DNA of 52,934 bases from the IMG/VR virus record IMGVR_UViG_3300011126_000153, positions 1-52,934 of that record; one strand, written 5' to 3'. This document shows, piece after piece, positions 5,584 to 42,854 of the stretch. The DNA is from a virus. Taxonomy: Duplodnaviria; Caudoviricetes. Below the pieces are notes generated by a model, which searched no databases, was not told the DNA's origin, and saw nothing but the letters and a program-made list of their open reading frames with translations. Both the position numbers and the translations under genes were made by a program. Position 1 is the stretch's first letter; each line of letters starts with the position of its first letter.

Positions 5584-5601
5584 TCATAAAGTGAAAAAAG
5601 G

Positions 5602-5610
5602 TGATATACT
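5602..5610 (+). promoter_or_regulatory. Extended -10 promoter element TGATATACT
   Basis: TGn-TAnnnT in intergenic DNA; similar TGATA(C/A/T)AAT at 29312, 41519, 42092, 44885 and 51583. Confidence 0.5.
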
Positions 5611-5627
5611 ACAATTATAAATAGTTG

Positions 5628-5675
5628 TACGAAACTTTAAATCGTATATTTGGTTATGTTTCTTCCCATAAAAGA
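5628..5675 (+). promoter_or_regulatory. Leader two-hairpin motif, copy 1
   Basis: TACGA-AACTTTAAA-TCGTA followed by TCTTCCCATAAAAGA. Confidence 0.7.
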
Positions 5676-5705
5676 TTTTTTTGATTAAATTTAAGAGATT
5701 CTTTT

Positions 5706-18977: not shown

Positions 18978-19898
18978 TTATTTCTCTGTTTTTACTAGTT
19001 CAATAAGTTCAAGGCTAGAACTTTTCTTCCAAGCTTCTTTTAAAGAAGCAGATCCTTTATCTGTAATTTTGTTGTGATCTATATATAAGTATTCAAGACT
19101 AGTGTTTATTTTTAAAGCCTCAGCAAAAGCGATAGCTCCTTCGTCTGAAATTTTGGTATAATCTAAATAAAGTGATTTAAGATTAGTGTTTGTTTTTAAA
19201 GCCTCGGCTAATGCAATAGCTCCTTTGTCTGTAATGTGATTCATGCCTAAATCAAGGGAGGTAAGACTAGTATTTGTTTTTAAAGCCTCAGCTAGAGCGA
19301 TCGTTCCTTTGTCTTCAAGGTTGTTAAAACTTAAATCAATAAAATTAAGTGTAGTGTTTGTTTTCAAAGATTCGGCTAATGCAATAACTCCTCTATCTGT
19401 AATTTCATTTTCACCTAAATTAAGAAAGTGAAGTGCAGCGCCTATTTTTAAAACATGCGCCAAAGCAATAGCTCCTTCATCTGCAATCCGGTTCTGAACT
19501 AGTTCAAGCCTATTAAGGGTTAAGTTTTCTTTTACTAAGTCTGGTCTCCAAAACCAATCTTGATCTATAACGTTTCTAGGTACTACAATTCTAGGTAATA
19601 CAACCCAATCTCCTCCTATCAACCAAATCTTAGTTAAAGCAATAACTCCTTCGTCTGAAATTCGGTTGTGACTTAAATCAATACTACGAATAGAAGTATT
19701 TACCTTCAAAGCGTTAGCAAAAGCGATAACTCCTTCGACTGAAATTTGATTATTAGGTAGAAAAAGATGTTTGACCTCTTTATTTGTCATCAATTCGTCG
19801 GCTAATTCTATAGCTCTTTCATCATCTATGCTGCTGTTATATAAACTTAACAGCCCGTCATTTATCCCCCTTATGTATCTTTTAATAGTTGTACTCAT
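18978..19898 (-). CDS. RNI-like (NLRC3-type) leucine-rich repeat protein
   Basis: 28-aa repeats GAIALAEALKTNTxLxxLxLxxNxITDK. Confidence 0.92.
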   Translation of the reverse strand: MSTTIKRYIRGINDGLLSLYNSSIDDERAIELADELMTNKEVKHLFLPNNQISVEGVIAFANALKVNTSIRSIDLSHNRISDEGVIALTKIWLIGGDWVVLPRIVVPRNVIDQDWFWRPDLVKENLTLNRLELVQNRIADEGAIALAHVLKIGAALHFLNLGENEITDRGVIALAESLKTNTTLNFIDLSFNNLEDKGTIALAEALKTNTSLTSLDLGMNHITDKGAIALAEALKTNTNLKSLYLDYTKISDEGAIAFAEALKINTSLEYLYIDHNKITDKGSASLKEAWKKSSSLELIELVKTEK

Positions 19899-19901
19899 AA
19901 G

Positions 19902-20555
19902 TCATTCCTCATTTTTAAAAATTTCGTTATATTGATTCACATATTCCTTTATCATAGGTATACATTCCTCAATTGTTTCGGTAATTAACTTTTGCATTTC
20001 ACTATCGTAATCAACTCTAAATATAAACAACCCATTACCTTTAGTTGCATGTTTGTCGTTATATAGCACGTAATCACACCATTTTCTAGAACAAACGAAC
20101 AAATTGAACTGCATTTGCCATCTATGCTCCTTTGAGATAGCCTCTACGCCCTTCTGAGAGATCTCTACGACCTGTCTAAAATAATTATTAGAATCTGGTG
20201 ACTTAATCTCAATCATGCCATCATCGCCCACTAATCCGTCGGGAGAACACGCTATGTAATCGTTCAATTGTACTAGCCCTACTTCATCAACAGCGGTAAA
20301 TTCAGAAACTATATATTCATTTCGTGCTATTGCTTCATTATCCCATCCTCGCTGAATATGAACATTTACATATTCAGCACCGTCTGATTTACAGCCCGTG
20401 ACTTTTTCGTTGGCTCTATCGTAAAGATATTTCTCACGCGCTGCTTTAGTACCTAGTAGTTTGTAAAAGCAAGAAGCAGTGATTTTACCTAGCCTTAACT
20501 TTAGCCATTCCTCACTGCCTTGCTCTATATCATTGTGTAACTGTATTTGCGACAT
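19902..20555 (-). CDS. YqaJ/lambda-exonuclease family protein
   Basis: QGSEEWLKLRLGKITAS, CSPDGLVG, IEIKSP, QMQFNL, WCDYV. Confidence 0.93.
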   Translation of the reverse strand: MSQIQLHNDIEQGSEEWLKLRLGKITASCFYKLLGTKAAREKYLYDRANEKVTGCKSDGAEYVNVHIQRGWDNEAIARNEYIVSEFTAVDEVGLVQLNDYIACSPDGLVGDDGMIEIKSPDSNNYFRQVVEISQKGVEAISKEHRWQMQFNLFVCSRKWCDYVLYNDKHATKGNGLFIFRVDYDSEMQKLITETIEECIPMIKEYVNQYNEIFKNEE

Positions 20556-21387
20556 TTAAAAACTGCTCTTTAAATTTAAAAAAATTCATTATGCCATTTT
20601 TTACCGTTTCCTTATCATTGCTATTGATATTATGAAAAGTAGCGAATTTCCCAGCGTCTATCTCATTATCTTTGCATAAGCCTATTAATTCTTTTACAAC
20701 TTCTACTTCCTCGCTTTTACTTTCTTCTACTTTTTTTATTTTTTGCGATTTATCATCATCTTTGATATTAAGGCTTTTTCCCTCCATTTCTTCCGCTGTT
20801 GGGTGTTGGCTAACAAATTCAGGAAATGCCTTACGTAACGCTTGTGCTTCAGTACATTTTGCAAGTTGCCCATATGGTCTCTTAGACCACATTGCATTAG
20901 GCGCTTGAGACTGAGATGCTATAGCCACATTTTCCATCCAATATTCTTTCGCGGAAAACTCAACAACTATCCCGTCTATTATTTTTTTTACTGTAACTTT
21001 GCACCATTTTGGATAGGTTATCTTTACTTGTCCAAAAGTGGTTGTTACATCTTCGCCATATTCAGGCTCAACAACACCTGCATATTGTCCACTACGCGCG
21101 GCTTGTATGCGATATAAGCCAATACCTGGCATTATAATATCCCTCCACTCAGAGTTTCTAGTCCCTGGGATTTTAATGTTCATTGGAACTATATGCACTG
21201 GCTTTTGCATTGGGTCTAATTTACCAGCCTTGCAATAATCCAAAACCATTAAAATACTTGCGTCTTTAGCTCCAGTGTATAAGCTGTTTTTAAGTGCCGA
21301 CCAAATAGAAGAGTCAATCCCATATTCATTGGTTGGTTTTGCTATTTGTACTTGTTCTTTTTTTTCTAAATTATTCATATTTTCCAT
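20530..21387 (-). CDS. bet: Phage single-strand annealing protein (Bet/RecT family)
   Basis: YCKAGKLDPMQKPVHIVPM, GIGLYRIQAARSGQYAG, MWSKRPYGQLAKCTEAQALRKAFPE. Confidence 0.92.
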   Translation of the reverse strand: MENMNNLEKKEQVQIAKPTNEYGIDSSIWSALKNSLYTGAKDASILMVLDYCKAGKLDPMQKPVHIVPMNIKIPGTRNSEWRDIIMPGIGLYRIQAARSGQYAGVVEPEYGEDVTTTFGQVKITYPKWCKVTVKKIIDGIVVEFSAKEYWMENVAIASQSQAPNAMWSKRPYGQLAKCTEAQALRKAFPEFVSQHPTAEEMEGKSLNIKDDDKSQKIKKVEESKSEEVEVVKELIGLCKDNEIDAGKFATFHNINSNDKETVKNGIMNFFKFKEQFLNVANTVTQ

Positions 21388-23087: not shown

Positions 23088-24347
23088 ATGGGATTAGCAC
23101 TAAGACAAGAAGAAACAGCAGAAAATCAACAACAAATAGGAAAACTTCTATCCTTCCGTGACGATAAATCTTATTACAGAAAAACATATATGAACTGGGA
23201 TAATATTGAACGAGCCAACAAAAACGATAATGCGGTTCATGGTAGAACTAAGCTTTTAAGTAATCGTGCGAAGAGTATAGCTGCTGTATCCGTGGGAAAA
23301 CTAACAAAAGGGCATAGGGTATTTTTCAATCATAAATACCTCTCTACTATCACCATGTGTGGAAAAAGACAGAACCTAACTATCATTGATGAATTAAGAG
23401 ATATACTTGAGATTACTTACCATAATACGGTCACTCATAACGGTAAGAAATATCGTTATTGTTATGAGTTTTCCTTTAAGTCGGAGAAGCCAGTAAACAC
23501 ACCTACTTCAGAAAGTTCTGTAGCGAGAAATAGCGTACATCAAAACGAAACACTCTATATACAAGAAGAAAATAAACATATTGAAGATATAGATCTATCA
23601 TCTAATATTTTAAATAATTCTTCCTTGCAAATTCAGACTGAAGATTCGAATTTACACGGTAATTCTTTTATAAAAAATTCAGTTACAAAAGCTTTAGCTG
23701 CAAACAGAAGAAAAAAAACCACCAATGCGCAGAAAAAAGCTAGGATTTACCGACCTATGTTCAATAATCAATATCCACAAACTAAAAATTTAGCTTGTCA
23801 TTACCCTTTGACAAGTGAGGATTGTTCATTGTTACAAAGCAGATCGGGTAGGGATTTTACTTTAAACGCTATGAATGAGATATTACTCGCCTTGTCTAAC
23901 AAACCTAAGGAGTCTGAGCATGAGTTCCCATCCAAAGAGGCTTTTCTGGCTTATATGAGCAAGATTTACAGGTATGAAAAACGAGATGCTGTTAAAACTA
24001 GCCAGATAAATTACCAGATAAAAGCAAACATGACCGAATTGGACATAATCGAGCAAACTAATTTCGCACAACGGGAGAAGTTTTTGGATAAAATAGAGCA
24101 AGAGGCAATAAGGCATGTGAGTTCTAATAACCAGCTAAAAGCCAAGCTAGCTAATACATTGCCACCAAGTGTAGCTTATGATTTTCTTTCTAAATTAAGG
24201 CGTTTTTATGTTAATGGGGGAATATTAGAGGCTCATCTAACATCAGCAATAGAACTCAGCCATTCGATACAGCAAATGATTGTAAAAGAGGCTAATGCTG
24301 TTGGTTATACTGGTGTTATGAGTTTAAAAGTGATACAAATGAAATGA
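23088..24347 (+). CDS. Replication initiator resembling Rickettsia-plasmid DnaA-like Rep (copy 1)
   Basis: FNHKYLSTITMCGKRQN..IIDELRDIL..YH..YCYE; LQSRSGRDFTLNAMNEILL; EKRDAVK; recognised from memory of the family. Confidence 0.75.
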   Translation: MGLALRQEETAENQQQIGKLLSFRDDKSYYRKTYMNWDNIERANKNDNAVHGRTKLLSNRAKSIAAVSVGKLTKGHRVFFNHKYLSTITMCGKRQNLTIIDELRDILEITYHNTVTHNGKKYRYCYEFSFKSEKPVNTPTSESSVARNSVHQNETLYIQEENKHIEDIDLSSNILNNSSLQIQTEDSNLHGNSFIKNSVTKALAANRRKKTTNAQKKARIYRPMFNNQYPQTKNLACHYPLTSEDCSLLQSRSGRDFTLNAMNEILLALSNKPKESEHEFPSKEAFLAYMSKIYRYEKRDAVKTSQINYQIKANMTELDIIEQTNFAQREKFLDKIEQEAIRHVSSNNQLKAKLANTLPPSVAYDFLSKLRRFYVNGGILEAHLTSAIELSHSIQQMIVKEANAVGYTGVMSLKVIQMK

Positions 24348-24352
24348 TGTAT

Positions 24353-24427
24353 TGGGATATAGCTCAGCGGTAGAGCGGTAGTCTTTGGTATTGCAGGTCG
24401 GAGGTTCGATCCCTCCTATCCCAGCCA
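24353..24427 (+). tRNA. tRNA-Gln(UUG) with encoded CCA
   Basis: Acceptor TGGGATA/TATCCCA, D arm GCTC/GAGC, anticodon loop CT-TTG-GT, T arm GGAGG-TTCGATC-CCTCC, discriminator G. Confidence 0.93.
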
Positions 24428-26050: not shown

Positions 26051-26355
26051 AATATACAATTGATGACACACGTAAGTTTATATCGAATATTTACATGTGG
26101 CTTACTACTAACGATGATTTGGACTATATCGAAAGTTGTGTAATGGATTGTTCCTCAGAGGAGTACATGAGGATTCGCTGCAAGTTAAACGCAATTTCAA
26201 AAGATAGTAGGTCTGCTCTTAATAAAGTCGCTGAGTATGTAGATGAGACCGATGCTTGCATGCGAATATTAAGAGTAGCTGCTGAAAGAGAGCGAAATAT
26301 TAGGAAAGAAGAAAAGGCTTATAAAAAGCTCAATAAGGGGGCTATTAATGAGTAA
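26047..26355 (+). CDS. Hypothetical protein
   Basis: ORF coupled to both neighbours. Confidence 0.7.
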   Translation: MKYTIDDTRKFISNIYMWLTTNDDLDYIESCVMDCSSEEYMRIRCKLNAISKDSRSALNKVAEYVDETDACMRILRVAAERERNIRKEEKAYKKLNKGAINE

Positions 26356-27613
26356 AGCATCAATGAAACGAATGCCTATAAATAACCTGTACTATTTTGA
26401 CAAGGGGGATCAAAAGCACAAATTCACCTACGACCAAGTTAAAAGGGCTACTAAATATATTACTCGTGCTAATGATAGAACTAAGACCATAGGGAACAAG
26501 CAAGCAGCTATTTTAGTTACGGACTTAGTGGATAGGCTAAATAAAAGCGAGAACGGATCTATTTATGTAGATCATGATTATCTTTCTAGCATCACGGATT
26601 GTTTGCCAGATCAGAATACAAAAATAATTAAGCAGCTAGCAGATATACTAGATTTTCAATATCACCGTTATGCAAGACAGGTAAAGCAATCATATTGCTA
26701 TGAAGTCAAATATACACATGATGGTGAAGATAGAATCAAAAACCCAGAACTATTTTATGATGTAAAACCTCCTAAAAACGAGGAAAGGAGGCCTAAAAAT
26801 ATCGCGATAGAACCAAAACCATACCCGATAAAAATCGGGGTTATAGCCGATAAAAATCAGCCATCATATATAGATATAAGAGATAAGGAAGAAATAAAAG
26901 AAAAAGAAGAATTAGATCCTTCTTTTTCTTTAGCGCGCGAGGTTATAACGAAATTTCCAACTAATTCTAAAACCCCAACCAAAACAAACGAGGAGAAAAC
27001 CGTGAACACGGAGAAAATTAAGCCCATAACGCAGTTATCATCCGAAATTTTTAGAAATTTTGATACTCAAACCAGTGAGGAGATCATAGAAAACTGTGTT
27101 TTTGAGGAGGTTACACCTAGTAAAATAGCCATCAACATAAAACCTAGCTTTGCTATGTCTGGCGAGAACAAGCAAAAAATTAAATCCTGTATTCGTAAGC
27201 TTTACGGGGAGGATGTACAGATGGTCAATGCCTCGTCTACCGTCCCGCAAAAACCTAAATTCTCTGTTGCAAAAGTAGCTCGTGAGGAGGGGAATCCACC
27301 AGAAACCCGAAAAAACGTTAGCCACGAATGGGGTGATATGAAAACGAAAATACTTGAGCGTTTTCCTTTGGATTACTACGATCACCTAAAGTCAGCATGG
27401 CTAGATAATCTAAATTTTATTAGGTTTGAAGATGAAAAAATAATAGTCCGAGCGCGTGCTTTTTATATTGATGAGATCTTTCAGCGATTCTCTCATGCAA
27501 TTGAACTAGCCGTGCTTAATACGAAGAAAAGCCTAGTTATTCAATACGAAAACAATGACCAACGACCGATCGAATTTTTATATAAACAAATTTTAAACAA
27601 GAGTAAAAAATGA
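26348..27613 (+). CDS. Replication initiator with C-terminal DnaA_N-like domain (copy 2)
   Basis: N-terminus paralogous to 23088 (ITRAN, HDYLSSITDC..QN..IIKQLADIL..YH..YCYE); C-terminal W..KSAWLDNL..IIVRA..FYIDEI..RF matches DnaA domain I. Confidence 0.8.
   Translation: MSKASMKRMPINNLYYFDKGDQKHKFTYDQVKRATKYITRANDRTKTIGNKQAAILVTDLVDRLNKSENGSIYVDHDYLSSITDCLPDQNTKIIKQLADILDFQYHRYARQVKQSYCYEVKYTHDGEDRIKNPELFYDVKPPKNEERRPKNIAIEPKPYPIKIGVIADKNQPSYIDIRDKEEIKEKEELDPSFSLAREVITKFPTNSKTPTKTNEEKTVNTEKIKPITQLSSEIFRNFDTQTSEEIIENCVFEEVTPSKIAINIKPSFAMSGENKQKIKSCIRKLYGEDVQMVNASSTVPQKPKFSVAKVAREEGNPPETRKNVSHEWGDMKTKILERFPLDYYDHLKSAWLDNLNFIRFEDEKIIVRARAFYIDEIFQRFSHAIELAVLNTKKSLVIQYENNDQRPIEFLYKQILNKSKK
26768..26861. 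repeat. Iteron-like repeats inside rep copy 2 (candidate origin)
   Basis: CCTCCTAAAAACGAGG, GGCCTAAAAATATCGC, CCCGATAAAAATCGGG, GCCGATAAAAATCAGC, followed by an A/T-rich tract. Confidence 0.6.
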
Positions 27614-30847: not shown

Positions 30848-31519
30848 CTATTCGTCAATATAGTTGATTGTTCGTTCACCGCTTTCGCTAATGTGTAATA
30901 CGTCATAATCTTCTACTACAGTCATACTTTTTAGCTCAAGTTTCATAAGTGAATCATTTGTTCCCAGTGCCTCAGCAAATGCAATTGCTCCGTACTCGGA
31001 TATTATATTATGACTTAGATCAAGGTTTTTAAGAGTATGATTGAACTTTAAAGAATGGGCAATTGATGCTGCTCCGCTATAAGTAATCAAACACTGAATT
31101 AGCTCAAGAGTAGTGAGAGTAGTATTAACCTTTAAAGCCTGGGAAAATTCATCTGCCATTACATCCCCCATATAAGCATCTATTATACTAAGAGAAGATA
31201 GTTTTTTATTAAAATGTAAAGCCTCGGCGATAGCAGTAGTATCACACATTTTGGTATGGATTAGCTCTAGGCTCTCGAGAGTATCATTTACTTTTAAAGC
31301 TTCGCCTAATGCAATAGCTCCTTCCTCTTCTATTGATATGTCTCCTATATAAAGCCCGGTAACAGATTTATTTACTTTTAAAGCTTCCGCTAGAGCAATT
31401 ATTTCTTCAGTCGTTAGCTTTACAAATTCTTCACCTGAATTGTCGTAATTAGATAAGAATATCATGTTGTCTTTGTTTTTAGTGGCTAGAAATTCGTGTA
31501 TAATTGATAGGTATTTCAT
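30848..31519 (-). CDS. Second RNI-like (NLRC3-type) LRR protein
   Basis: Repeats such as GAIALGEALKVNDTLESLEL and LKFNHTLKNLDLSHNII; AGGAG RBS. Confidence 0.9.
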   Translation of the reverse strand: MKYLSIIHEFLATKNKDNMIFLSNYDNSGEEFVKLTTEEIIALAEALKVNKSVTGLYIGDISIEEEGAIALGEALKVNDTLESLELIHTKMCDTTAIAEALHFNKKLSSLSIIDAYMGDVMADEFSQALKVNTTLTTLELIQCLITYSGAASIAHSLKFNHTLKNLDLSHNIISEYGAIAFAEALGTNDSLMKLELKSMTVVEDYDVLHISESGERTINYIDE

Positions 31520-31570
31520 AATAGTTCTCCTTTAAGTTAACGTTTGGCACTGTGTAAGTGCTATAAAGCT

Positions 31571-31640
31571 ACTATAAAACACTATTTATTAGTTGTCAAT
31601 AGTTTTTTTTATTTACAACAACTATTTTATAATATATATT
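31571..31640. promoter_or_regulatory. Back-to-back sigma70 promoters (LRR gene leftward, RHH gene rightward)
   Basis: Minus TTGACA-N17-TATAGT (31599-31571); plus TTTACA-N17-TATATT (31612-31640). Confidence 0.7.
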
Positions 31641-31671
31641 ATGGAGACAATTAATTAAGTGAGTAAATATT

Positions 31672-31833
31672 ATGAGTAAAGAAGAAAAAAGTAAAACTAG
31701 TGTTATATCGGTATCAATGCCTAATGAGTTATATGATAAGCTAAGGGCGTATGCGGAGCAGAAGGATAGGTCAAAGGGTTCTGTTATGAGGACGGGACTT
31801 AAGTTGCTTTTAGAGGAGGAAAATAGAAAGTAG
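31672..31833 (+). CDS. CopG/ribbon-helix-helix regulator, 53 aa (not in track)
   Basis: MSKEEKSKTSVISVSMPNELYDKLRAYAEQKDRSKGSVMRTGLKLLL. Confidence 0.85.
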   Translation: MSKEEKSKTSVISVSMPNELYDKLRAYAEQKDRSKGSVMRTGLKLLLEEENRK

Positions 31834-31843
31834 GACTACAGAT

Positions 31844-31876
31844 AAACTATCTTAGCACGCCTCACTAAGATAGTTT
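31844..31876. terminator. Hairpin between the RHH gene and the end of the paralogue array
   Basis: AAACTATCTTAG-9nt-CTAAGATAGTTT. Confidence 0.75.
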
Positions 31877-31884
31877 GTTCTTTA

Positions 31885-32148
31885 TTAAAGGAGGGCAAAA
31901 AGCAAAACAGAAAGCACAATAGACGTAATACCTATGAGTATTATTCTTTTTGTTCTAAGGTTCTCTGCATCAAAAATCTTCTGAAACTTAATAGCATGCT
32001 CATCATCACACTCAAGAGGCTCATCAATGAGTGATAGGATAAAAACTGCCTCTTGCCCAGGTTCTAGTGTTATGGTGCTACATTCTTTTTTAGCTGCTCG
32101 AAGTTCTGCTATTTGCTGTTTTAGACTTGTGTTGTTATCTACTTTCAT
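31885..32148 (-). CDS. Array member 16, C-terminal transmembrane helix
   Basis: IILIGITSIVLSVLLFALL; TSLKxQ motif shared with the 22-aa ORF. Confidence 0.7.
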   Translation of the reverse strand: MKVDNNTSLKQQIAELRAAKKECSTITLEPGQEAVFILSLIDEPLECDDEHAIKFQKIFDAENLRTKRIILIGITSIVLSVLLFALL

Positions 32149-32821
32149 AATACAATTTATTTTCTCCGTTCATTATGGTTTTAAAAATATAAAATTCATC
32201 ATCAGTTAAGTTAAGAACATCAAAATTATGAGGACTTTTACCTAGGTATCCTTTTCTTTTTAAAAATCCAATTATTTTTAGTCTATGTTTTTTGGTATCA
32301 GGTTTAAATACATATGGAGTTTTTAAGGTTCTAAACTTATCAAGCCTAATGTTCATGTCATCCTGAAAAGTACACGTAGTTACAAATTTACTAGGCGATT
32401 GTAAAGATTCATCGAGAGATTCCTCAAACTTTGATAATTCAATTTCATTTCCGTGTGTTACAAATCCTATAGAGTGAATCATTGCGTGTTCTGAAATTTC
32501 ATTATTCAAAAACTTTTGAAGTACTTCTTTTGCTAAAGCACCCCTTAAATTGTTTAACGGATCTTTTTGCTTGTTTTTATGTATTTGGTTTAATGTTACA
32601 AAATAATAATCATTTTCGTTGTCTAAAAAATTTTTGCTATATTTAACTAATTTATCTTTAGCATCTTGGTTTAAATCTTCTATCAAGGCTATAGTATCTT
32701 CTTTAGTATTCTTTACTTTTTGTTTTTCGTCATTTAATTCAGATGCTTCAAAAAGAGCATATCCTAAATCGGATTCTTTAAACTTTATTAGTTCTAGTGC
32801 TAGTTTTTCGTTGTTAGTCAT
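32135..32821 (-). CDS. Array member 15
   Basis: ATGACTAA start; LKRKGYL..LNLTDDEFYIF motif. Confidence 0.8.
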   Translation of the reverse strand: MTNNEKLALELIKFKESDLGYALFEASELNDEKQKVKNTKEDTIALIEDLNQDAKDKLVKYSKNFLDNENDYYFVTLNQIHKNKQKDPLNNLRGALAKEVLQKFLNNEISEHAMIHSIGFVTHGNEIELSKFEESLDESLQSPSKFVTTCTFQDDMNIRLDKFRTLKTPYVFKPDTKKHRLKIIGFLKRKGYLGKSPHNFDVLNLTDDEFYIFKTIMNGENKLYYESR

Positions 32822-32829
32822 GCTGTTCC

Positions 32830-32898
32830 TTATTTTTTATAATTTTTTATGTTTGCTAGTTGCAGTTTTAGGCTTGTGGTCTGGTCTGGTTTAGTCAT
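32830..32898 (-). CDS. Array member 14, 22-aa mini-ORF MTKPDQTTSLKLQLANIKNYKK
   Basis: ATGACTAA start overlapping the upstream stop; fills the gap. Confidence 0.5.
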   Translation of the reverse strand: MTKPDQTTSLKLQLANIKNYKK

Positions 32899-33430
32899 AT
32901 TTACCTTCTACTGCGTTGTTAAAGTTGCTATATGCCATATCCATAAGTCTTTTATAAACCAAAAGTTCTATATCAGTTAGACAATTAGCAAAATCACAAT
33001 ATTGATTATCACATAGAACTATACTAGTATTAGTATATTTTATAAGCTTGCATTTTACCAAAGAGTCTAAAACTATGGTTATGTGACCTTCATATGATGG
33101 GAAGACATCTATTTTATAAGGGTTGTTATTATCCATTTTTTTAAACCGCTGATATATAGAGTCAAGTTTATCAGAAAAAATTATATTTTTAACAGGTGAT
33201 CTTTTATTCATTAGATCTTTCGCTAAATCAGAAATATAATCTTCATTTTTGATAGGGTCAGCCATTCTATCATCAAATGCAATATTATATTTAAAAGCCT
33301 CTTCCGCGTGTTTTAGCCTTGTTAGTTTCCCTATAGCTCCTTCTGCTAAGTACGGAGGGCTGAGTAAAATTAATTCTAGTTCTTCTTCTAGCTCCCTCTC
33401 CATAGCGTCTAGGTCATCTTGTTTAGTCAT
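32891..33430 (-). CDS. Array member 13
   Basis: MTKQDDLD head; LVKCKLI..LTDIELLVYK. Confidence 0.8.
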   Translation of the reverse strand: MTKQDDLDAMERELEEELELILLSPPYLAEGAIGKLTRLKHAEEAFKYNIAFDDRMADPIKNEDYISDLAKDLMNKRSPVKNIIFSDKLDSIYQRFKKMDNNNPYKIDVFPSYEGHITIVLDSLVKCKLIKYTNTSIVLCDNQYCDFANCLTDIELLVYKRLMDMAYSNFNNAVEGKYD

Positions 33431-33437
33431 ATTATCT

Positions 33438-33689
33438 CTACACGTTGGTTACTAAAATTATATAAAGCCTAACTTCATCATCAGTTAAACTATAAGGATT
33501 TATTGTGGAATGCATAATCATACATTCCGGCTCGCCATCCGAGGACTCTTTAATTAATCCTTTTTTTATTAGAGATTTTGCTACTTTCATTCTGTATTGC
33601 TCGTCTTGTAGATTAACAGATGGGCCTTGTAATTTCTCTGATCTCTTTACCATTTTTTCTTGAAATTCAATGATTTTTGTTATTGTCAT
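33438..33689 (-). CDS. Array member 12 (C-terminal module only)
   Basis: GAGG RBS before MTITK; LIKKGLI..LTDDEVRLY. Confidence 0.75.
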   Translation of the reverse strand: MTITKIIEFQEKMVKRSEKLQGPSVNLQDEQYRMKVAKSLIKKGLIKESSDGEPECMIMHSTINPYSLTDDEVRLYIILVTNV

Positions 33690-33819
33690 GCTGTTCCTCA
33701 TCTTTTATAATTTTTTCTATTCTCTTTTTTTCATTTGTCTTCATTTGTTGTAATTTTTTATATTTGCTTCTTGATCCACTGCTGCCCTTTCTTCCGGCTT
33801 TTCCTCTATCTTTAATCAT
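33667..33819 (-). CDS. Array member 11, 50-aa basic peptide (not in track)
   Basis: GAGGAGGAG RBS; MIKDRGKAGRKGSSGSRSKYKK... Confidence 0.55.
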   Translation of the reverse strand: MIKDRGKAGRKGSSGSRSKYKKLQQMKTNEKKRIEKIIKDEEQHDNNKNH

Positions 33820-33828
33820 TCTCCTCCT

Positions 33829-34188
33829 CTATTTTACTGTTGTAGTTACTTTTACCATTTTATTTCCGGTGTACCCAAATCGCATTATATCCTCTCGTGT
33901 AAAATAGTCTATCTTAGATGCTTTTTTAGGATCATCGGAATAAATACAGTATCTTATAAAGTCGTCATCATCGTGTACAACCGAGGAAGTTAGGTATTCT
34001 AATGCAGCGTCTCTCGTATGCTCTGTTATTTGGCTCGTCATATACAGCACATCGACTTTCTCTTCTAAGCTCTCTGGTGTTGGCATATACACTGGGGCAT
34101 ATCCTTCTGGAAGTCTTACAGGTATTCTACGTTGAAGCTTTCTCAGGTCGCATTTAGGTAGTGGTGTTTGTTCTTTGCCGTTAGTCAT
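33829..34188 (-). CDS. Array member 10
   Basis: LEEKVDVLYMTSQITEHTRDAALEYL; FIRYCIYSDD. Confidence 0.8.
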   Translation of the reverse strand: MTNGKEQTPLPKCDLRKLQRRIPVRLPEGYAPVYMPTPESLEEKVDVLYMTSQITEHTRDAALEYLTSSVVHDDDDFIRYCIYSDDPKKASKIDYFTREDIMRFGYTGNKMVKVTTTVK

Positions 34189-34555
34189 TTTTCTCCTCCT
34201 TAAAAATATCTAATAGACTTGGCCGCAAGAACTTCATAGACATGAAAATTGTATTTGGCATTCTAAATGGAACAAAGCGCCTTTTGTATTCTAGCATTTC
34301 TAATTTTTCCGCAGCTGAAGCTTTATGATATCTTGGAGAATCCATAACCTTTTGCAGTCCTTCTTCCACCTGTTTTTTATCATCATCAGTATACTTAAAT
34401 TCGTTTGCGTACTGCAACATTTTAAGTTTGTCAGTAGCTGATGCTTCGGCATATTGAGTAGAGTCTAAAACTACTTGTAGTTCTATCTCATGTTCATCTT
34501 TGTTATATTGTTGTTCTAGTTGTTCTATAGTATATATGTCGTCTGGTTTAGTCAT
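34181..34555 (-). CDS. Array member 9 with internal duplication
   Basis: LQxVxDSxxYxxASAxxKLxMLxY occurs twice. Confidence 0.8.
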   Translation of the reverse strand: MTKPDDIYTIEQLEQQYNKDEHEIELQVVLDSTQYAEASATDKLKMLQYANEFKYTDDDKKQVEEGLQKVMDSPRYHKASAAEKLEMLEYKRRFVPFRMPNTIFMSMKFLRPSLLDIFKEEKND

Positions 34556-35175
34556 GCTACTAATATATTTGATTCTAATTTTTTCCAGAAAGTCTTGAGG
34601 CCAACAAGCTCTTCGTCAGATAAACTGCAAAGATCTATCTTATGGAGCGAAGGTAACGAATATGTACCTTTCTCTTTGTTAAAAACAAGAGTTCCTCTTT
34701 TTTCTAGAGCGTCAAATGCCTTTGTACCAGCGTGTACATTTGCAAACATTGTAATGTCATAGTCGTACCCTAGTTCCTTAAATCTCTTCTTAAGATCATC
34801 GTCCATAATGCAGAATTGTATAAATTCATCAATGGGGGTCAATGCCTCTTCAAGCTTTGATATAAACGCGGTGGCTTGTTCTATTTTTTTTAACCACATC
34901 TCTTTTTCGCTAATCCAATTATACGGCTCAAAACTCATGAATCCAATAGTGCCATCTTCTTTTATTGTTTCTTGAGTAGATACATCCCCACTTTCAGATA
35001 AAAACGTTTTACTTTCACCAGTATGAGGGGTTTTTAAACATTCTTGAAGCTTTAGCTTATACTCATCTAGTTCCGATATCTTACTAAGGAAATGATCTTT
35101 TTTGCTAGCTGAGATCTGTTCGCTTGTATACAGTTCTTTAATTCGTTTTATAATCTCTAGGTTATCGTTAGTCAT
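34552..35175 (-). CDS. Array member 8
   Basis: MTNDNLE head; ELYTSEQIS; FIQFCIMDD; LEKRG..LSDEEL. Confidence 0.8.
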   Translation of the reverse strand: MTNDNLEIIKRIKELYTSEQISASKKDHFLSKISELDEYKLKLQECLKTPHTGESKTFLSESGDVSTQETIKEDGTIGFMSFEPYNWISEKEMWLKKIEQATAFISKLEEALTPIDEFIQFCIMDDDLKKRFKELGYDYDITMFANVHAGTKAFDALEKRGTLVFNKEKGTYSLPSLHKIDLCSLSDEELVGLKTFWKKLESNILVA

Positions 35176-35216
35176 GCTGCTCCTCTAATAATTAAAATAT
35201 ATATTTGGCTTGTTTA

Positions 35217-35660
35217 TCAAAGCTCAAGGGCATCTAGAAATTTTTTATAAATAAAAACCTCTAAATCAGATAAATTAGTTATAGTAGAAAGGTCAATATA
35301 GGCAAAATCATACGCTCCGAACTCACTACCCCTTTTTTTAATGAGTTTTTTGTTTATCAACGAGTCCATTATTTGTTCATATTGTTCCTTTGCTTTTAGG
35401 ATTAAACCCCTAGTATTCACTCCTTCATCTTGTAGTCTTTTCATCCTTTCGTATAAAGTGTCGCAGAAAATAGCTTGTTTTATAAAAGAACCTGATGTTA
35501 TAGATTCTTCTAAATCAGGAAGATATCCATTATCACTAGTATTGGCTAGCCTATCTAAGACTTTTTCTTTCATATTAATTGAAATTTCTTTGTTTACCCA
35601 AAGATCAATAACTTGCTCTTCTAGCTTTTGTTTCCTAGCATCTAGGTTGTCGTTAGTCAT
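35217..35660 (-). CDS. Array member 7
   Basis: MTNDNLDARKQKLEEQVIDLW; LINKKLI..LSDLEV. Confidence 0.8.
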   Translation of the reverse strand: MTNDNLDARKQKLEEQVIDLWVNKEISINMKEKVLDRLANTSDNGYLPDLEESITSGSFIKQAIFCDTLYERMKRLQDEGVNTRGLILKAKEQYEQIMDSLINKKLIKKRGSEFGAYDFAYIDLSTITNLSDLEVFIYKKFLDALEL

Positions 35661-36118
35661 GCTTCCTCTGTTATATTGTTATTCTTAAGATTATCCCTAT
35701 ACTCCATGGTTTCCATTGAGCATTGATTATAAACCGCAAACTCTTCATTAGTTAAAGTAGAAAGGTTTAGATTAGATTTATCATCAACAATACTATATTT
35801 GTCATCATTATGTTGCTCGAAAAACCCTTTTTTAATTAGAGTTTTAGCTATTTTTTTCATCTCGTTTTTATCAAACTCAAAGCTTTTATCCGAAATTTCC
35901 TCTAATTTTTTATCATAATCATTGGAAAAAATACATGTCTTAAGAAATTGATCTGATGATTCTAGAAACTTAGATGTATTATCGGCTTCTTCTAGTGCCT
36001 CTTCTAGCACTTCTAAAGCAGTATCTCTTGAGTAGTTTGATATCTGTTTGGTTACATACAAATCTATAACCTTTTCTTTTAAATTTTGCATTCTAGCATC
36101 TAGGCTGTCTTTAGTCAT
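35657..36118 (-). CDS. Array member 6
   Basis: MTKDSLDARMQNLKEKVIDLYVTKQIS; LIKKGF..LTNEEF. Confidence 0.8.
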   Translation of the reverse strand: MTKDSLDARMQNLKEKVIDLYVTKQISNYSRDTALEVLEEALEEADNTSKFLESSDQFLKTCIFSNDYDKKLEEISDKSFEFDKNEMKKIAKTLIKKGFFEQHNDDKYSIVDDKSNLNLSTLTNEEFAVYNQCSMETMEYRDNLKNNNITEEA

Positions 36119-36149
36119 ATTGTTCCTCCATATTATTTAATTCATATAA

Positions 36150-36434
36150 CTAGATACCATCTAATAATCTCTCTAGAGGCTTTAGAGAATTGGTAGCTGC
36201 AATATCGTCTACTATTTTAGATGAGTGAGCTTCATGAGCATTAAATTCTTTTACAAAATTGTCGGGATTTTTTATACGTTCCTCAACAATTGAAATAAAT
36301 TTAATATTAGCTCTGGATATTAAATTTAACATACCTATTTTAGCTATTTCCGAGAGATTATTATTTGTATAAAGATCAATAATTTTCTCTTTTAACTTCT
36401 GCTTCCTAACATCTAGGTCATCTTGTTTAGTCAT
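36150..36434 (-). CDS. Array member 5 (N-terminal module only)
   Basis: MTKQDDLDVRKQKLKEKIIDLY. Confidence 0.8.
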   Translation of the reverse strand: MTKQDDLDVRKQKLKEKIIDLYTNNNLSEIAKIGMLNLISRANIKFISIVEERIKNPDNFVKEFNAHEAHSSKIVDDIAATNSLKPLERLLDGI

Positions 36435-36462
36435 TCTTCTCTCCTTTAATTTGTTTAATAAA

Positions 36463-36657
36463 TTATAATTCTGATTCGCTTAGGTTTGAAGACATGGCTT
36501 CTTTAAGTTCCTTAAGGTTCATTGGTTTTGATTCCCTGCATTCTAATTCAAAAAGCTCTATTGATGCTGCTTCTATAAAATCAGCAAACGTTATACCCTT
36601 AACTATTTCATCTTCTAGCTTATACTTCCTAACTTCTAGGTTCTCAGGTTTAGTCAT
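36463..36657 (-). CDS. Array member 4
   Basis: MTKPENLEVRKYKLEDEI. Confidence 0.75.
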   Translation of the reverse strand: MTKPENLEVRKYKLEDEIVKGITFADFIEAASIELFELECRESKPMNLKELKEAMSSNLSESEL

Positions 36658-36658
36658 A

Positions 36659-37225
36659 TTAGTCCTCTTCTTCCATCTGTTCCAGAATATTTGTTTCTAT
36701 TATATGATAAACAAGAAACTCTGTGTCTGTTAACTTAAAAACATCCTCCTTAGTTCTGTTTTTAAAAATCATGCTCAACTTGTCATCGCCTTCATCATTT
36801 AAAAAACCTTTTTCTACTAGAGAGTTATGTATTTCTTCGCTCTCTTTTTTATTTAAATTCAATGTTATCTCAGATAATAAGTCTAATCTTTTAGAATATT
36901 CATGAGAATAGATGCAGTTCTGCAAGAATGATTCCTGTGATTCTATGAGTTCTGCGTCATTTGATCTTAAACTCCCTAATGCCGTGTCTCTAACAAACTC
37001 TGATATCTGTTTTGTCAGGTGCAAGTCAACAACCTTTTTTTCTAGGTCTTTCTTCCAATCCTCGAAATTTTCATCCTCTTTTTTATCCTCTGTAATTTCC
37101 ATTAGTCTTATTTCTACTCCATGCTTTGCCCAAGCTTTTTGATGAGCTTCCGCATGTTCCATAGTACTAGGAATATACATAACTCTTTTTTTTGATTGTG
37201 CTTTTAGGCTGTCTGGTTCAGTCAT
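36659..37225 (-). CDS. Array member 3
   Basis: LEKKVVDLHLTKQISEFVRDTAL; FLQNCIYS; LVEKGFL..LTDTEF. Confidence 0.8.
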   Translation of the reverse strand: MTEPDSLKAQSKKRVMYIPSTMEHAEAHQKAWAKHGVEIRLMEITEDKKEDENFEDWKKDLEKKVVDLHLTKQISEFVRDTALGSLRSNDAELIESQESFLQNCIYSHEYSKRLDLLSEITLNLNKKESEEIHNSLVEKGFLNDEGDDKLSMIFKNRTKEDVFKLTDTEFLVYHIIETNILEQMEEED

Positions 37226-37476
37226 GTTTTTCCTCTGCTTACTTCTTTCATTACCCCATAAAGATATAAAAATTCATCATCATTTAAAATGTCTATATCC
37301 ATATCTTTGTTATTAAAATTATCAGAAATTCTAATCTTTTTTTGATCTACTGAAGTGTCTAAAAAGCCTTTATCTACCAAATTTTTTCTAAGTTGTTTAG
37401 GATCTTTGAAGGTCATTTTTTCAATATCTAGTTCGTTCAGTTTCTTTCTGAATTTTTCATTAAATTCATTCGTCAT
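37222..37476 (-). CDS. Array member 2 (C-terminal module only)
   Basis: GAGG RBS before MTNEF; LVDKGFL..LNDDEFLY. Confidence 0.75.
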   Translation of the reverse strand: MTNEFNEKFRKKLNELDIEKMTFKDPKQLRKNLVDKGFLDTSVDQKKIRISDNFNNKDMDIDILNDDEFLYLYGVMKEVSRGKT

Positions 37477-37496
37477 TTTTACCTCTTCGTACATTT

Positions 37497-37955
37497 TTAC
37501 CTCTTTGAATTATAATGCTCTATGTTCATACCATTAACTTGTTCGTATAAAATAAATTCATCATCAGTTAAATTATCAATATCTGTTGCTGCATTTGTTA
37601 GGTCTAGTTTTATTAAAGAGAATCCCTCTCCGCCCGCTTCTTCTTTAGCAAAGCCTTTTTTTATAAGTGATTCCCCTAGTTTTTTTAAAACTTTTATATT
37701 ATTCATCTTAAAAGGACGATCTGCTAATTCGTCAATTCTTTTGTTATATTTATCATTATGATTAGATAGTCGTGCAAACAAGTCGGGATTTTTCAGAGAT
37801 TGCTCAACGCTTAAAAAATAAGCTGCGTCATCCGTGTTTATTCTGTGTAATATAAAGTCCCTAGTATCAACCGAGACTTGTTTATTAAAATACATCTCTA
37901 TGATTTGTGTTGTTAGTTTCTCTTTTCTAGAGTCTAGGTTGTCTTCGTCTGTCAT
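37497..37955 (-). CDS. Array member 1
   Basis: Start moved to MTDEDNLDSRK (GAGG RBS, downstream of the promoter); LIKKGF..LTDDEFILY. Confidence 0.8.
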   Translation of the reverse strand: MTDEDNLDSRKEKLTTQIIEMYFNKQVSVDTRDFILHRINTDDAAYFLSVEQSLKNPDLFARLSNHNDKYNKRIDELADRPFKMNNIKVLKKLGESLIKKGFAKEEAGGEGFSLIKLDLTNAATDIDNLTDDEFILYEQVNGMNIEHYNSKR

Positions 37956-37984
37956 ATTAATCCTCATTTTTAAATTGTTAGCGT

Positions 37985-38054
37985 ACAATAACTCAGGTTA
38001 TACTAAAAGTCAATTAAATATTTATTTGACTTTTAATGTAGATTCGTATATAAC
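37985..38054. promoter_or_regulatory. Divergent promoters built on a 32-bp near-perfect palindrome (38004-38035)
   Basis: TAAAAGTCAATTAAATATTTATTTGACTTTTA; minus TTGACT-N17-TATTGT, plus TTGACT-N17-TATAAC. Confidence 0.75.
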
Positions 38055-38083
38055 TATGTAATAAATTAAATCAATATAGAGCT

Positions 38084-38326
38084 ATGACAACAAAACAAAA
38101 GGCTATCAGAGGAAGACCTCCGTTAAATGAACCAAAACAATCTGTTTATATAAAAATAGATAAAGGTTTGCATAGGCAAGTTAAGGTGTATTGTGCGAAC
38201 AATGATAAAAAGATGGCTTTTGTAGTAAACGAAGCCTTAAAATCTTTTTTTAAAAATTCAGTGCAGGAATACATTGAAAACAAAATGCACGTATATATAG
38301 GTGATGAGAGTAAACAAGAGGATTAA
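38084..38326 (+). CDS. Ribbon-helix-helix regulator
   Basis: RGRPP..QSVYIKIDKGLHRQVKVYCANNDKKMAFVVNEALKSF. Confidence 0.85.
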   Translation: MTTKQKAIRGRPPLNEPKQSVYIKIDKGLHRQVKVYCANNDKKMAFVVNEALKSFFKNSVQEYIENKMHVYIGDESKQED

Positions 38327-38329
38327 ACT

Positions 38330-38515
38330 ATGAACTTAAAACAAGAACTACAGCTTTTAAGCACAAAACTAAAAGGAGTAATGAAATCTGTTGGTGGTAT
38401 TGAAAACGAGGAATACGTTAATCAAGATAAGATAATAAATACACAAGGTGATATTAAGTCTTTAGTTGAGCAATTAATGGACTTATCAGGTGAACTTGAG
38501 GATAGAGGTTTATGA
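38330..38515 (+). CDS. Small helical hypothetical protein
   Basis: GAGG RBS; ATGA overlap. Confidence 0.65.
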   Translation: MNLKQELQLLSTKLKGVMKSVGGIENEEYVNQDKIINTQGDIKSLVEQLMDLSGELEDRGL

Positions 38516-38889
38516 TAGAAGACGATCAAATATTCACAAAAGAACAGTTATTGAAAGTAACGGAATTAGCTGAATTATTTCCGAGTGAGAAGGTAGCTCA
38601 CGATTTTGGAATTAAGGCTGGTAGATTTGTGAAGTTAAGAAGAGAACAACCAGAATTAAATGAAGCTTATAATAAAGGCGCTAAAATCAGAGCGTTAAGG
38701 AGAATAGCTGATAAAGCTGCTGGTAGAACTGGAGCTAAAACTAAACTTATAAAAATGCCGGAATATATAGTTCCTATAGAGCTTAATTCAGAAAACGATG
38801 CTTGGGCTGGTTTTAAAAAGAAATTTCAAGAAAATAAGGAAAGAGAGCTAAAGAAAGAATTGAATGAGATAAGGAATATATTATTATGA
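38512..38889 (+). CDS. HTH protein, TerS-N-terminus-like
   Basis: EKVAHDFGIKAGRFVKLRREQPELNEAYNKG. Confidence 0.55.
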   Translation: MIEDDQIFTKEQLLKVTELAELFPSEKVAHDFGIKAGRFVKLRREQPELNEAYNKGAKIRALRRIADKAAGRTGAKTKLIKMPEYIVPIELNSENDAWAGFKKKFQENKERELKKELNEIRNILL

Positions 38890-38976
38890 AGGAACAAAAC
38901 GAACTAGAGTTTAATATCAATTATCATTATGCGCATACTAATTGCAATACCATGATGTTAGCTTTCATGCATAGAT

Positions 38977-39000
38977 TCCAGAAAACGGCCGTTTTCTGGA
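38977..39000. repeat. Perfect 24-bp palindrome without spacer
   Basis: TCCAGAAAACGGCCGTTTTCTGGA. Confidence 0.9.
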
Positions 39001-42134: not shown

Positions 42135-42854
42135 ATGGTTAACAATAAATTCGTTGCTTTTGTTACATTAAGCTTATTGATAGCAATTAATTATGCATCA
42201 ATATCATGCGCAGAACCTAAGCAAAACCAATATTATATAAAGATGGTAAATACACTCTCTAATATATCGGGTATTAAAGCAAATGAGCCTGATTTAAATT
42301 TCAAATTAACGCAGGGGTCAAAGCTGTCTCCATCTATTGGTTTGGGTTTTGGTTATTATATTAATGATAGATTTAGAGTTGATACTATATTTGAGTTAGC
42401 AAGATTTAATTTCGACAAAGAATCCTCCGGCTTCGAATGTAATAACGGAATTTCTACATCAGTAGGGACTAAATCCATGCAACGTAAGAGTAGCAGTAAA
42501 TCTATAATGTTCAATGGTTATGCAGATCTAGCAGAGAGGAACGGACATAAAATATTTATAGGTGCAGGTGTCGGAGCTATAAGAATATCAGAGAAAATAA
42601 CTCATACTTTGTCAGGAACTACTTTATCACCTCTTGGCGCTCATACCTTTCCTTTGCTAACTGAAAATAATACTAACAAAGTGAGAAACAAGTTAGCTTA
42701 TTCATTGATGTTAGGTAGTAGCTTTAAGGTGTATCCTCAAATAAATATTGAGCTAATGTATAGTTGGAAAAATCTAGGTAAAGTTAAATGCTCGAATTTT
42801 AATAGCCAATATAAAGGTCATCATTTTTCTATTGGATCACGCTTTGATATTTAA
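42135..42854 (+). CDS. Outer-membrane beta-barrel protein (opacity/OmpA-TM-like; Rickettsiales surface antigen type)
   Basis: Signal peptide; GLGFGYYINDRFRVD, MFNGYADL, FIGAGVG, IELMYSWKNLG, C-terminal GSRFDI. Confidence 0.9.
   Translation: MVNNKFVAFVTLSLLIAINYASISCAEPKQNQYYIKMVNTLSNISGIKANEPDLNFKLTQGSKLSPSIGLGFGYYINDRFRVDTIFELARFNFDKESSGFECNNGISTSVGTKSMQRKSSSKSIMFNGYADLAERNGHKIFIGAGVGAIRISEKITHTLSGTTLSPLGAHTFPLLTENNTNKVRNKLAYSLMLGSSFKVYPQINIELMYSWKNLGKVKCSNFNSQYKGHHFSIGSRFDI

Follow-up and report, generated by a model that had tools for sequence, protein, structure and literature searches.

Layout of the gene array

A tightly packed array of small genes occupies 11% of the tailed-phage genome (Duplodnaviria; Caudoviricetes) deposited as IMG/VR record IMGVR_UViG_3300011126_000153. 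The window, by which we mean the whole stretch of DNA that was analysed, is this entire record: a complete tailed-phage genome of 52,934 bp that carries direct terminal repeats and has a completeness rating of 100%. The array lies on the minus strand at 31885-37955, where 15 open reading frames (ORFs) follow one another closely, six neighbouring pairs overlapping by 4-23 nucleotides (nt) and eight being separated by gaps of 1-69 nt; a first-pass annotation of this DNA had described 16 co-oriented, packed genes, of which the packed minus-strand arrangement stands and the count becomes 15. By eye, a purine-rich ribosome site immediately precedes most of the 15 ORFs, and several show the start/stop overlaps typical of coupled translation.

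Thirteen of the 15 ORFs belong to one protein family, whose modules are referred to here as A, B and C, with a further A-like element, D. In the list that follows, lengths are in amino acids (aa) and, where no other search is named, E values are those of a profile built from 10 foreign proteins of the family (the foreign-only profile) and run on the 645 six-frame ORFs of the genome.

g01, 37497..37955, minus strand: full-length member (A+B+C), 152 aa; E 1.5e-21
g02, 37222..37476, minus strand: C-module-only member, 84 aa; E 9.2e-8
g03, 36659..37225, minus strand: full-length member with an N-terminal extension of ~50 aa, 188 aa; E 2.3e-17
g04, 36463..36657, minus strand: short A-like member, 64 aa; blastp to g05, E 5e-6
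g05, 36150..36434, minus strand: A(+B)-only member, 94 aa; E 8.9e-9
g06, 35657..36118, minus strand: full-length member, 153 aa; E 7.1e-19; modelled; absent from a co-occurring variant
g07, 35217..35660, minus strand: full-length member, 147 aa; E 3.7e-16; ortholog at 95% nt identity in a close relative (L001)
g08, 34552..35175, minus strand: full-length member, 207 aa, A and B separated by an insert; E 4.8e-8
g09, 34181..34555, minus strand: two D (A-like) repeats, 124 aa; blastp to g13, E 1.6e-5; internal repeat
g10, 33829..34188, minus strand: A+B member with an N-terminal extension, 119 aa; E 4.5e-4
g11, 33667..33819, minus strand: basic low-complexity ORF, 50 aa, isoelectric point (pI) 10.2; no PHROG match
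g12, 33438..33689, minus strand: C-module-only member, 83 aa; E 9e-11; the second protein modelled
g13, 32891..33430, minus strand: D/A-like N-terminus plus C module, 179 aa; E 1.9e-6
g14, 32135..32821, minus strand: full-length member, 228 aa, extended by 85 aa at the N-terminus; E 1.9e-4
g15, 31885..32148, minus strand: last gene of the operon, 87 aa; hydrophobic C-terminal membrane helix (by eye); not a family member

Like g15, g11 is not a family member, and it is possibly not a gene.

One protein family with separable domains

The array had been proposed to encode one modular family, and this is what the comparisons support. In an all-versus-all blastp search of the 15 array proteins, E values reach down to 1.8e-27 at identities of 24-36%, and the foreign-only profile matches 11 array ORFs (g01-g03, g05-g08, g10 and g12-g14) at E 1.5e-21 to 4.5e-4, the best ORF outside the array reaching E 0.14. 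The remaining two members, g04 and g09, are missed by that profile and are tied to the family solely through their paralogs g05 and g13; profile A1, which itself includes both g04 and g09, matches them at 9.4e-16 and 6.1e-22, respectively. Full-length, A-only and C-only members are all present. Modules A, B and C of the first-pass annotation correspond to structural elements of a predicted model, while its fourth module, D, lines up with A in the alignment and is therefore best read as a diverged A.

The model in question is that of g06, computed with AlphaFold2 from a 16-row alignment (predicted local distance difference test, pLDDT, 87; predicted template-modelling score, pTM, 0.76). In it, module A would form a helical hairpin (helices 3-22 and 28-43), module B a further pair of helices (45-53 and 55-74), and module C a helix (84-96) ending in KKG, a beta-hairpin (100-110) and a helix (124-147) that starts from the LT[DN]xEF motif. 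The C-only protein g12 is predicted to form a helix/helix/hairpin/helix unit by itself (pLDDT 83.8, pTM 0.71), and because it folds alone like the C module, we regard the family as consisting of two separable domains, with the short members being single domains. At most, the predicted C module can be called winged-helix-like, and since no sequence or fold match is significant, the term serves as a description and not as a statement of membership. All 13 member reading frames are open, their conserved positions are mostly those of the hydrophobic core, and the proteins are acidic to neutral, with pI values of 4.6-6.7 (13 of 13 below 7) and a net charge of -9 to -17 in several cases.

The family had not been recognised in the first reading of the DNA, and no tested member matched the libraries searched. 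Pfam returned nothing significant for g01-g10 or for a set of 16 family members, PHROGs nothing significant for the 15 array ORFs or the protein P0029, and NCBIfam nothing significant for the 13 members; the only PADLOC row, for one of the 13 members at E 0.0043, was taken to be a chance match. Matches in the ESM Atlas did not exceed 0.80, with a template-modelling (TM) score of 0.36 or less. There was no match of the array to deposited phages by blastn, nor of g06, P0029 and P0021 to phages or plasmids by tblastn, and longer, fused forms of the family were looked for and none found, in a type of search that is weak as evidence. With the g06 model, the best Foldseek E values were 1.3 against the PDB and 0.53 against BFVD, and the top hit of a wide VIA search (Z 7.0) covers only the helical hairpin, residues 1-47. 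With the g12 model, the best Foldseek E value was 1.0, and VIA placed the CAP-like domain of type IA topoisomerases first (Z 4.5, root-mean-square deviation 2.6, 57 aligned) and a few winged-helix chains at Z 2.4-2.6, all in the noise range. The best match of the family profile among PDB sequences was to residues 17-70 of MecI, its recognition helix and wing, at a non-significant E of 0.078. Below the Pfam threshold, the 16 members gave Penicillinase_R (0.057), GMT-wHTH (0.065), APAF-1-like_WHD (0.13) and WH_DRP (0.16), each of these winged-helix families being matched by one member of the 16 only, and g06 gave a weak match to Lin1244_N (E 0.052, below the cut-off). The literature on tandem paralog arrays in phages and on capsid-targeting sequences, searched by words in open-access text, offered analogies and nothing like this family. 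The array proteins appear to be one previously undescribed phage protein family.

Relatives and lineage-specific expansion

A profile search of 1.84 billion representative proteins produced 26 matches at E <= 1e-3, of which 12 are the window's own ORFs or near-identical fragments of them and 14 are others; a second, word-indexed search returned 14 proteins, none of them (0/14) with a Pfam domain or a name. Foreign relatives are rare proteins of ~140 aa that keep A, B and C and start MKAK.. or MEKEK.., without the MT[KN]xDNLD head found in the window. The complete 58-kb phage G001 (L003) has one full and one partial copy, against the 11 matches in the window. In L003, and likewise in the provirus fragment L002, the single full copy begins one base past the stop codon of a helicase gene with a DnaB_C match (6.2e-66), 3 kb beyond there is an A-only-like ORF, and the helicase-linked replication module has two proteins in common with the window at 45-50% identity. 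A maximum-likelihood tree separates ten foreign proteins from nine window and L001 copies with a split support of 98/96, from which we conclude that the array is an expansion within this phage lineage; the end branches of the tree are very long.

No further relatives were found in a metagenome scan with P0015, in a genome-contig search with P0029 and A3, or in a viral-contig search with g15, A3 and an 80-aa ribbon-helix-helix (RHH) protein encoded beside the array. The head DNA pattern occurs in 17 viral contigs, none of which (0/17) encodes a family member, and these occurrences were discarded as chance matches. Elsewhere in L003, a complete record with terminal repeats, 4700-6127 (minus strand) encodes a 475-aa multi-pass membrane protein that looks solute-transporter-like by eye.

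Gene turnover among close relatives and within one sample

The array is not invariant, as can be seen by comparison with L001, a 22-kb fragment of a close relative whose flanks are 77-95% identical to the window at the nt level. L001 has the same 53-aa RHH gene, nearly identical, at the end of the array and an ortholog of g15, and upstream of g15 it carries a 270-aa member whose C-terminal part is g07-like, a 103-aa A-only member and the g07 ortholog, such that the place of g08-g14 in the window is taken by two other members. An extra member of L001 (P0018), on the other strand, ends a rightward early/replication operon where the window has a leucine-rich-repeat (LRR) gene. L004, from the sample that also yielded L001, has a C-module fragment at its start, upstream of the terminase region; an unrelated ORF occupies this site in the window.

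The same kind of change is seen in the sample itself. Three sequencing runs were found to contain the array region, all from one marine sediment metagenome sample, and their contigs were aligned to 31000-39000 at a likeness of at least 85%. The reference order is borne out by difference-free X1 contigs (31899-35258, 35567-36176 and 36379-38053), and these, together with the recognition of the family by foreign sequences, led us to reject an assembly artefact or chance as explanations of the array. Other contigs join distant parts of the array. The joint 35661->36120 removes exactly g06, from its start codon to that of g07, at a depth of 23.8 in X1 and 3 in X3, so that this start-to-start loss is present in two of the three runs; the joint 32135->35231 carries 34 inserted letters that contain a gene head and represents an L001-like form; and the joints 37177->34105 and 34484->37948 reorder the array. 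The first-pass annotation had suggested that breakpoints would fall at the gene heads, and besides the exact deletion of g06, 6 of the 16 joint ends fall no more than 20 nt from a gene start, against an expected share of 0.098 (binomial tail 0.003, the joint ends not being independent of each other). Overall, gene content turns over as whole genes are gained, lost and reordered among closely related phages.

At the level of single substitutions, the ratio of nonsynonymous to synonymous change (dN/dS) is 0.53-0.81 in array genes and 0.23 in the RHH gene, on few changes, which fits looser or diversifying constraint on the array genes. As a separate observation, the g07 ortholog of L001 (12295-12696, minus strand; 95% nt identity) has an in-frame TGA where the window has GGA, and it is either a pseudogene or the product of a sequencing error.

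Conserved gene heads

Thirteen of the 15 array ORFs start with ATGAC and nine of the 15 with ATGACTAA, slightly fewer than the 14 of 16 and ten that had been counted at first pass; six array ORFs continue into ACCTAGA, and two further observations made at first pass hold as stated, namely the identity of the first 23 nt of g05 (start 36434) and g13 (start 33430), and the use of CTA for leucine in all seven window heads with Leu at that place. Outside the array, among 61 crudely called genes, 8/61 start with ATGAC and 4/61 with ATGACTAA. At the protein level, every array gene but g11 and g15 begins MT[KNDEI]; over the first 12 codons, identity of the amino acids is 52%, and the same codon is used at 68% of identical residues, compared with 44-52% further on. 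Head conservation is largely that of a shared N-terminal peptide. In L001, four of four array genes begin ATGAC[TG]AA, including the unrelated membrane protein gene g15', from which it follows that the head can sit on different bodies; g15 itself is kept in L001, there with an MTKPD-type head. A 13-nt mini-palindrome in the head has seven matches in the genome, six of them in heads. An RNA hairpin at this place is not supported by covariation, nor by pair counts (78% paired, which 54 of 500 shuffles equalled or exceeded; the shuffle value was 74.3%). Three explanations of the heads may apply: they could reflect descent plus a favourable start of translation, they could be sites of gene conversion or exchange, or they could encode a peptide tag.

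Control elements flanking the array

The array is bounded on both sides by elements that may govern its expression.

Divergent control region, 37956..38083, no strand: between the array and the rightward 80-aa RHH gene
Arc-like RHH gene, 80 aa, 38084..38326, plus strand: Pfam 56B_RHH 6e-9; PHROG Arc-like repressor 3.1e-5
Hairpin, 31844..31876, no strand: 12-bp stem and 9-nt loop, between the convergent g15 and 53-aa RHH gene (by eye; inverted self-match)
Arc-like RHH gene, 53 aa, 31672..31833, plus strand: PHROG repressor 8.2e-8, Arc-like 1.5e-4; convergent with the array end

At the upstream end, a palindrome at 37999-38040 (21+21 nt with no spacer, 86% complementary) carries a TTGACT box in each arm, and each box faces a -10-like hexamer: on the minus strand 38013-37985 reads TTGACT-17-TATTGT, a sigma-70-like site that agrees at 9 of 12 positions, and a plus-strand TTGACT/TATAAC pair is visible by eye. 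Promoter-like sites in the region are not commoner than in shuffles (36 vs 31.7, sd 5.7). The 80-aa RHH protein is a candidate regulator of this shared control region. Downstream, the hairpin is a likely terminator, and among co-occurring variants seven of its loop positions differ (31857-31864) and none in the stems. A single promoter for the array, as assumed at first pass, is plausible from these features, and the array looks like one operon with a repressible promoter.

The phage genome and its source

Outside the array, the window encodes a large terminase (PHROG match 9.8e-85), a portal protein, tail-fibre-like proteins, a single-stranded DNA-binding protein (SSB), a two-helix-turn-helix repressor-like protein and, at 19902-21387 (minus strand), a YqaJ-type exonuclease and RecT recombinase pair (2.1e-15 and 3.1e-24). 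The terminase is at most 39.6% identical to those of deposited phages, the closest being phages of Roseobacter, Paracoccus and Rhizobium, and the phages with the nearest terminases infect marine and soil Alphaproteobacteria. With marine sediment runs as the only ones found to contain the region and the nearest terminases below 40% identity in alphaproteobacterial phages, the link to Rickettsiales that had been entertained is without support.

Several other genes deserve mention in their own right. A tRNA-Gln with anticodon TTG (24353-24427, plus strand) lies among the early genes and is the single tRNA of the genome, and it was the sole match in an Rfam scan of the window. Two RNI-type LRR proteins are encoded at 18978-19898 and 30848-31519 (both minus strand; LRR_6 1.3e-45 and 1.5e-5). 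At the latter site L001 has an array-family member, and we therefore regard 30848-31519 as a second variable spot. Directly upstream of the large terminase, 42135-42854 (plus strand) encodes a protein of 239 aa with what looks by eye like a signal segment at its N-terminus and with a sub-threshold match to an outer membrane protein (OMP) beta-barrel (2.5e-4, 21.7 bits against a cut-off of 28.7), which is conserved in L004. In the head module, a 159-aa ORF (48104-48583, plus strand) matches a PHROG annotated as co-chaperonin GroES (2.9e-9). Two early/replication-module proteins of ~420 aa (23088-24347 and 26348-27613, plus strand), without Pfam or PHROG match, are common to L001 and also occur in L002 and L003 at 45-50% identity, the second of them preceding the DnaB-like helicase in both; the two may be an undescribed initiator family.

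What the array may be for

The reading that we tentatively favour, and hold to be plausible if not quite probable, is that the array is an accessory operon, shuffled by recombination, whose diversified products bind host components and serve host takeover or counter-defence. The conserved head, made up of the ribosome site, ATGACTAA and then the peptide MT[KN]xD[ND]LD, would supply short homology for turnover, which the phage's own RecT/YqaJ pair may drive. The products would be accessory binders, every one adapted to its own target in the host or a competitor, and would be made together in a burst from the RHH-controlled promoter. We take them for accessory binders because the array resembles other variable accessory loci.

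Several observations weigh against this reading. No anti-defence, takeover or effector family was matched in Pfam, PHROGs, NCBIfam or PADLOC, the last of which consists of defence and not anti-defence models, and no search aimed at Acr families was made. In the single-copy relative the gene lies behind DnaB in a replication module, and this suggests that the ancestor had a housekeeping role and not one in an arms race. The evidence for turnover within the sample comes from short-read contigs of one sample at 85% likeness, whose joints may include assembly chimeras, and since alignments of diverged copies tend to end where similarity ends, the enrichment of breakpoints is not independent of head conservation. 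No RNA run is listed as containing the array region. As for the heads, ATGACTAA also begins the TerL gene and three other genes outside the array, the same-codon excess is modest, and the head may be a good translation start inherited by descent. A related proposal, that the array is a self-renewing cassette system, strikes us as unlikely: here the head, down to about its tenth codon, would be kept as a portable recombination and expression module used by RecT/YqaJ, which would insert, delete, reorder and re-head genes and capture unrelated ones (g15' of L001), and a phage population would carry a constantly changing arsenal of one new two-domain binder fold, each member neutralising a different host defence or hijacking a different machine, such as the replicative helicase.

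The main rival to the accessory-operon reading is a replication role by way of a DnaB-type helicase, which the family would bind as loader, adaptor or inhibitor, the window copies capturing or blocking host helicases; we consider it improbable, to about the same degree as the cassette system. It draws on the position of the full copy one base after the DnaB_C stop, in the replication module, in both G001 (L003) and L002, on that of P0018 at the end of the early/replication operon of L001, and on the sub-threshold Lin1244_N match of g06. When the L003 helicase was modelled in complex with the adjacent protein, the prediction added a weak signal, with a score of 0.42 (runs 0.00, 0.42 and 0.45) against 0.16 for the best control, a partner pLDDT of at least 70 and a between-run contact agreement of at least 0%. 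Of 80 solved complexes, 58 reach the mark used for such predictions, as do 2 of 110 mismatched pairs; at scores of 0.60 or less, though, those reaching it are no more than 7 of the 80 solved complexes and the two mismatches, and 0.42 lies in a range that is more often wrong than right. In addition, 13 diverged copies, with single-domain fragments among them and members lost at strain level, are not what one would expect of a replication-essential helper, and it is generally known that in many phages unrelated accessory genes also sit behind the helicase. DnaB_C has no match among the window ORFs scanned. The helicase and takeover readings can be combined, in that the ancestor may have been a helicase partner and the expanded copies hijackers. 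Less likely again, in our estimation, is that the C module forms a genuine winged helix, with the paralogs acting as transcription factors or nucleoid-binding proteins that reprogramme transcription of the phage or the host. The predicted order of elements in the C module (helix, helix ending in KKG, beta-hairpin, helix), the MecI recognition helix and wing as best PDB sequence match, the scattered sub-threshold Pfam matches of single members and the topoisomerase CAP-like domain as closest structural neighbour of the C-only model all lean that way, but every one of these matches is non-significant, the conserved positions are mostly core, and such acidic proteins would be unusual DNA binders, a weak argument.

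Of the readings considered, we give the least credence to one in which the proteins are packaged in the virion and injected, with the head as a capsid-targeting or processing tag of the T-even internal-protein kind and the array as a set of first-strike proteins ejected into the host, and think it very unlikely. The MT[KNDEI] head of all array genes but g11 and g15, and MTKPD even on g15' of L001, would suit such a tag. Set against this, the array lies on the strand opposite to the structural genes and has its own divergent promoter, the foreign single-copy relatives lack the head and are located in replication modules, MT[KN] also begins TerL and other genes, and no prohead protease was found among ten structural-region ORFs scanned with PHROGs, a scan that was not exhaustive. 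That the array is largely neutral debris, a past amplification now decaying in which the A-only and C-only ORFs are functionless fragments and the strain differences ongoing loss, seems to us about as doubtful as the DNA-binding reading. The single-domain members, the 50-aa low-complexity ORF, the in-frame TGA of the L001 g07 copy, the very long end branches and the high dN/dS of 0.5-0.8 are what decay would produce, but dN/dS stays below 1, all 13 members are open, ribosome sites precede most of the array ORFs and start/stop overlaps occur in several, both domain models are confident with conserved cores, and the array takes up its 11% of the genome in spite of the packaging pressure on a phage.

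The array is a concrete case for asking whether conserved gene heads act as recombination handles, with cassette turnover visible within a single sample, and its members are a natural set of divergent versions of a single scaffold, which can help to work out what the scaffold binds and how its specificity changes. If the helicase link is true, the family would represent replication hijackers of a new class. Hypervariable accessory regions have been a source of new functions of phages in counter-defence and takeover. With nothing in culture, immediate use is limited.

Comparison with known systems

As a hypervariable accessory operon, or as the expansion of a viral gene family, the array is a known kind of locus, and several systems resemble it in part. 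The internal proteins (IPs) of T-even phages are reported to be diverse proteins of defence or counter-defence that have in common only a short conserved N-terminal targeting sequence, and, like the array genes, theirs encode small, highly diverse accessory proteins that vary between related phages (PMC3012670). The array differs in that its protein bodies are homologous to each other and its genes do not run in the late/structural direction. There is also the idea that the T-even IP genes are shuffled via conserved 5' sequences.

In poxviruses, K3L is a case of the genomic accordion. A phage counterpart is the reported amplification by T4 of the counter-defence gene tifA through microhomology recombination, and the array is like such an accordion in its tandem small accessory genes, its short-homology recombination and the virus's own recombination system (10.1101/2022.04.14.488369). 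Accordion copies are recent, near-identical and unstable, whereas those of the array are 25-36% identical, of varied domain content and evidently old. In acr-aca operons a strong promoter drives several small accessory genes with an attached small repressor gene, and the Arc/Mnt-ant arrangement of P22 immI is likewise an accessory locus with a repressor attached. The small RHH regulator genes at the ends of the array and its palindromic divergent promoter, to which binding would be expected, recall both, but the genes of acr operons are usually unrelated and those of the array are paralogs.

Among protein families, the predicted C module is like BlaI/MecI (Penicillinase_R) and MarR in its helix ending KKG(F/L), beta-hairpin and further helix, and unlike them in the lack of a significant match, the acidity of the proteins and a dissimilar N-terminal part. 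The inner-body/head proteins of PhiKZ-like phages are reported to be multi-copy paralogs of which several copies are individually dispensable (10.1101/2025.11.23.690004). They share with the array the presence of many paralogs within one phage genome; unlike the array, which has no Pfam domain and lies in a 53-kb genome, they are virion proteins of PF12699 in a jumbo phage. In comparison with integrons, no integrase was found among the window ORFs scanned, which were not all of them, and the only repeated element is the 5' head. Overall, the array is unusual in the features that it combines, namely ~13 diverged paralogs of one new fold, with single-domain derivatives and conserved, portable heads.

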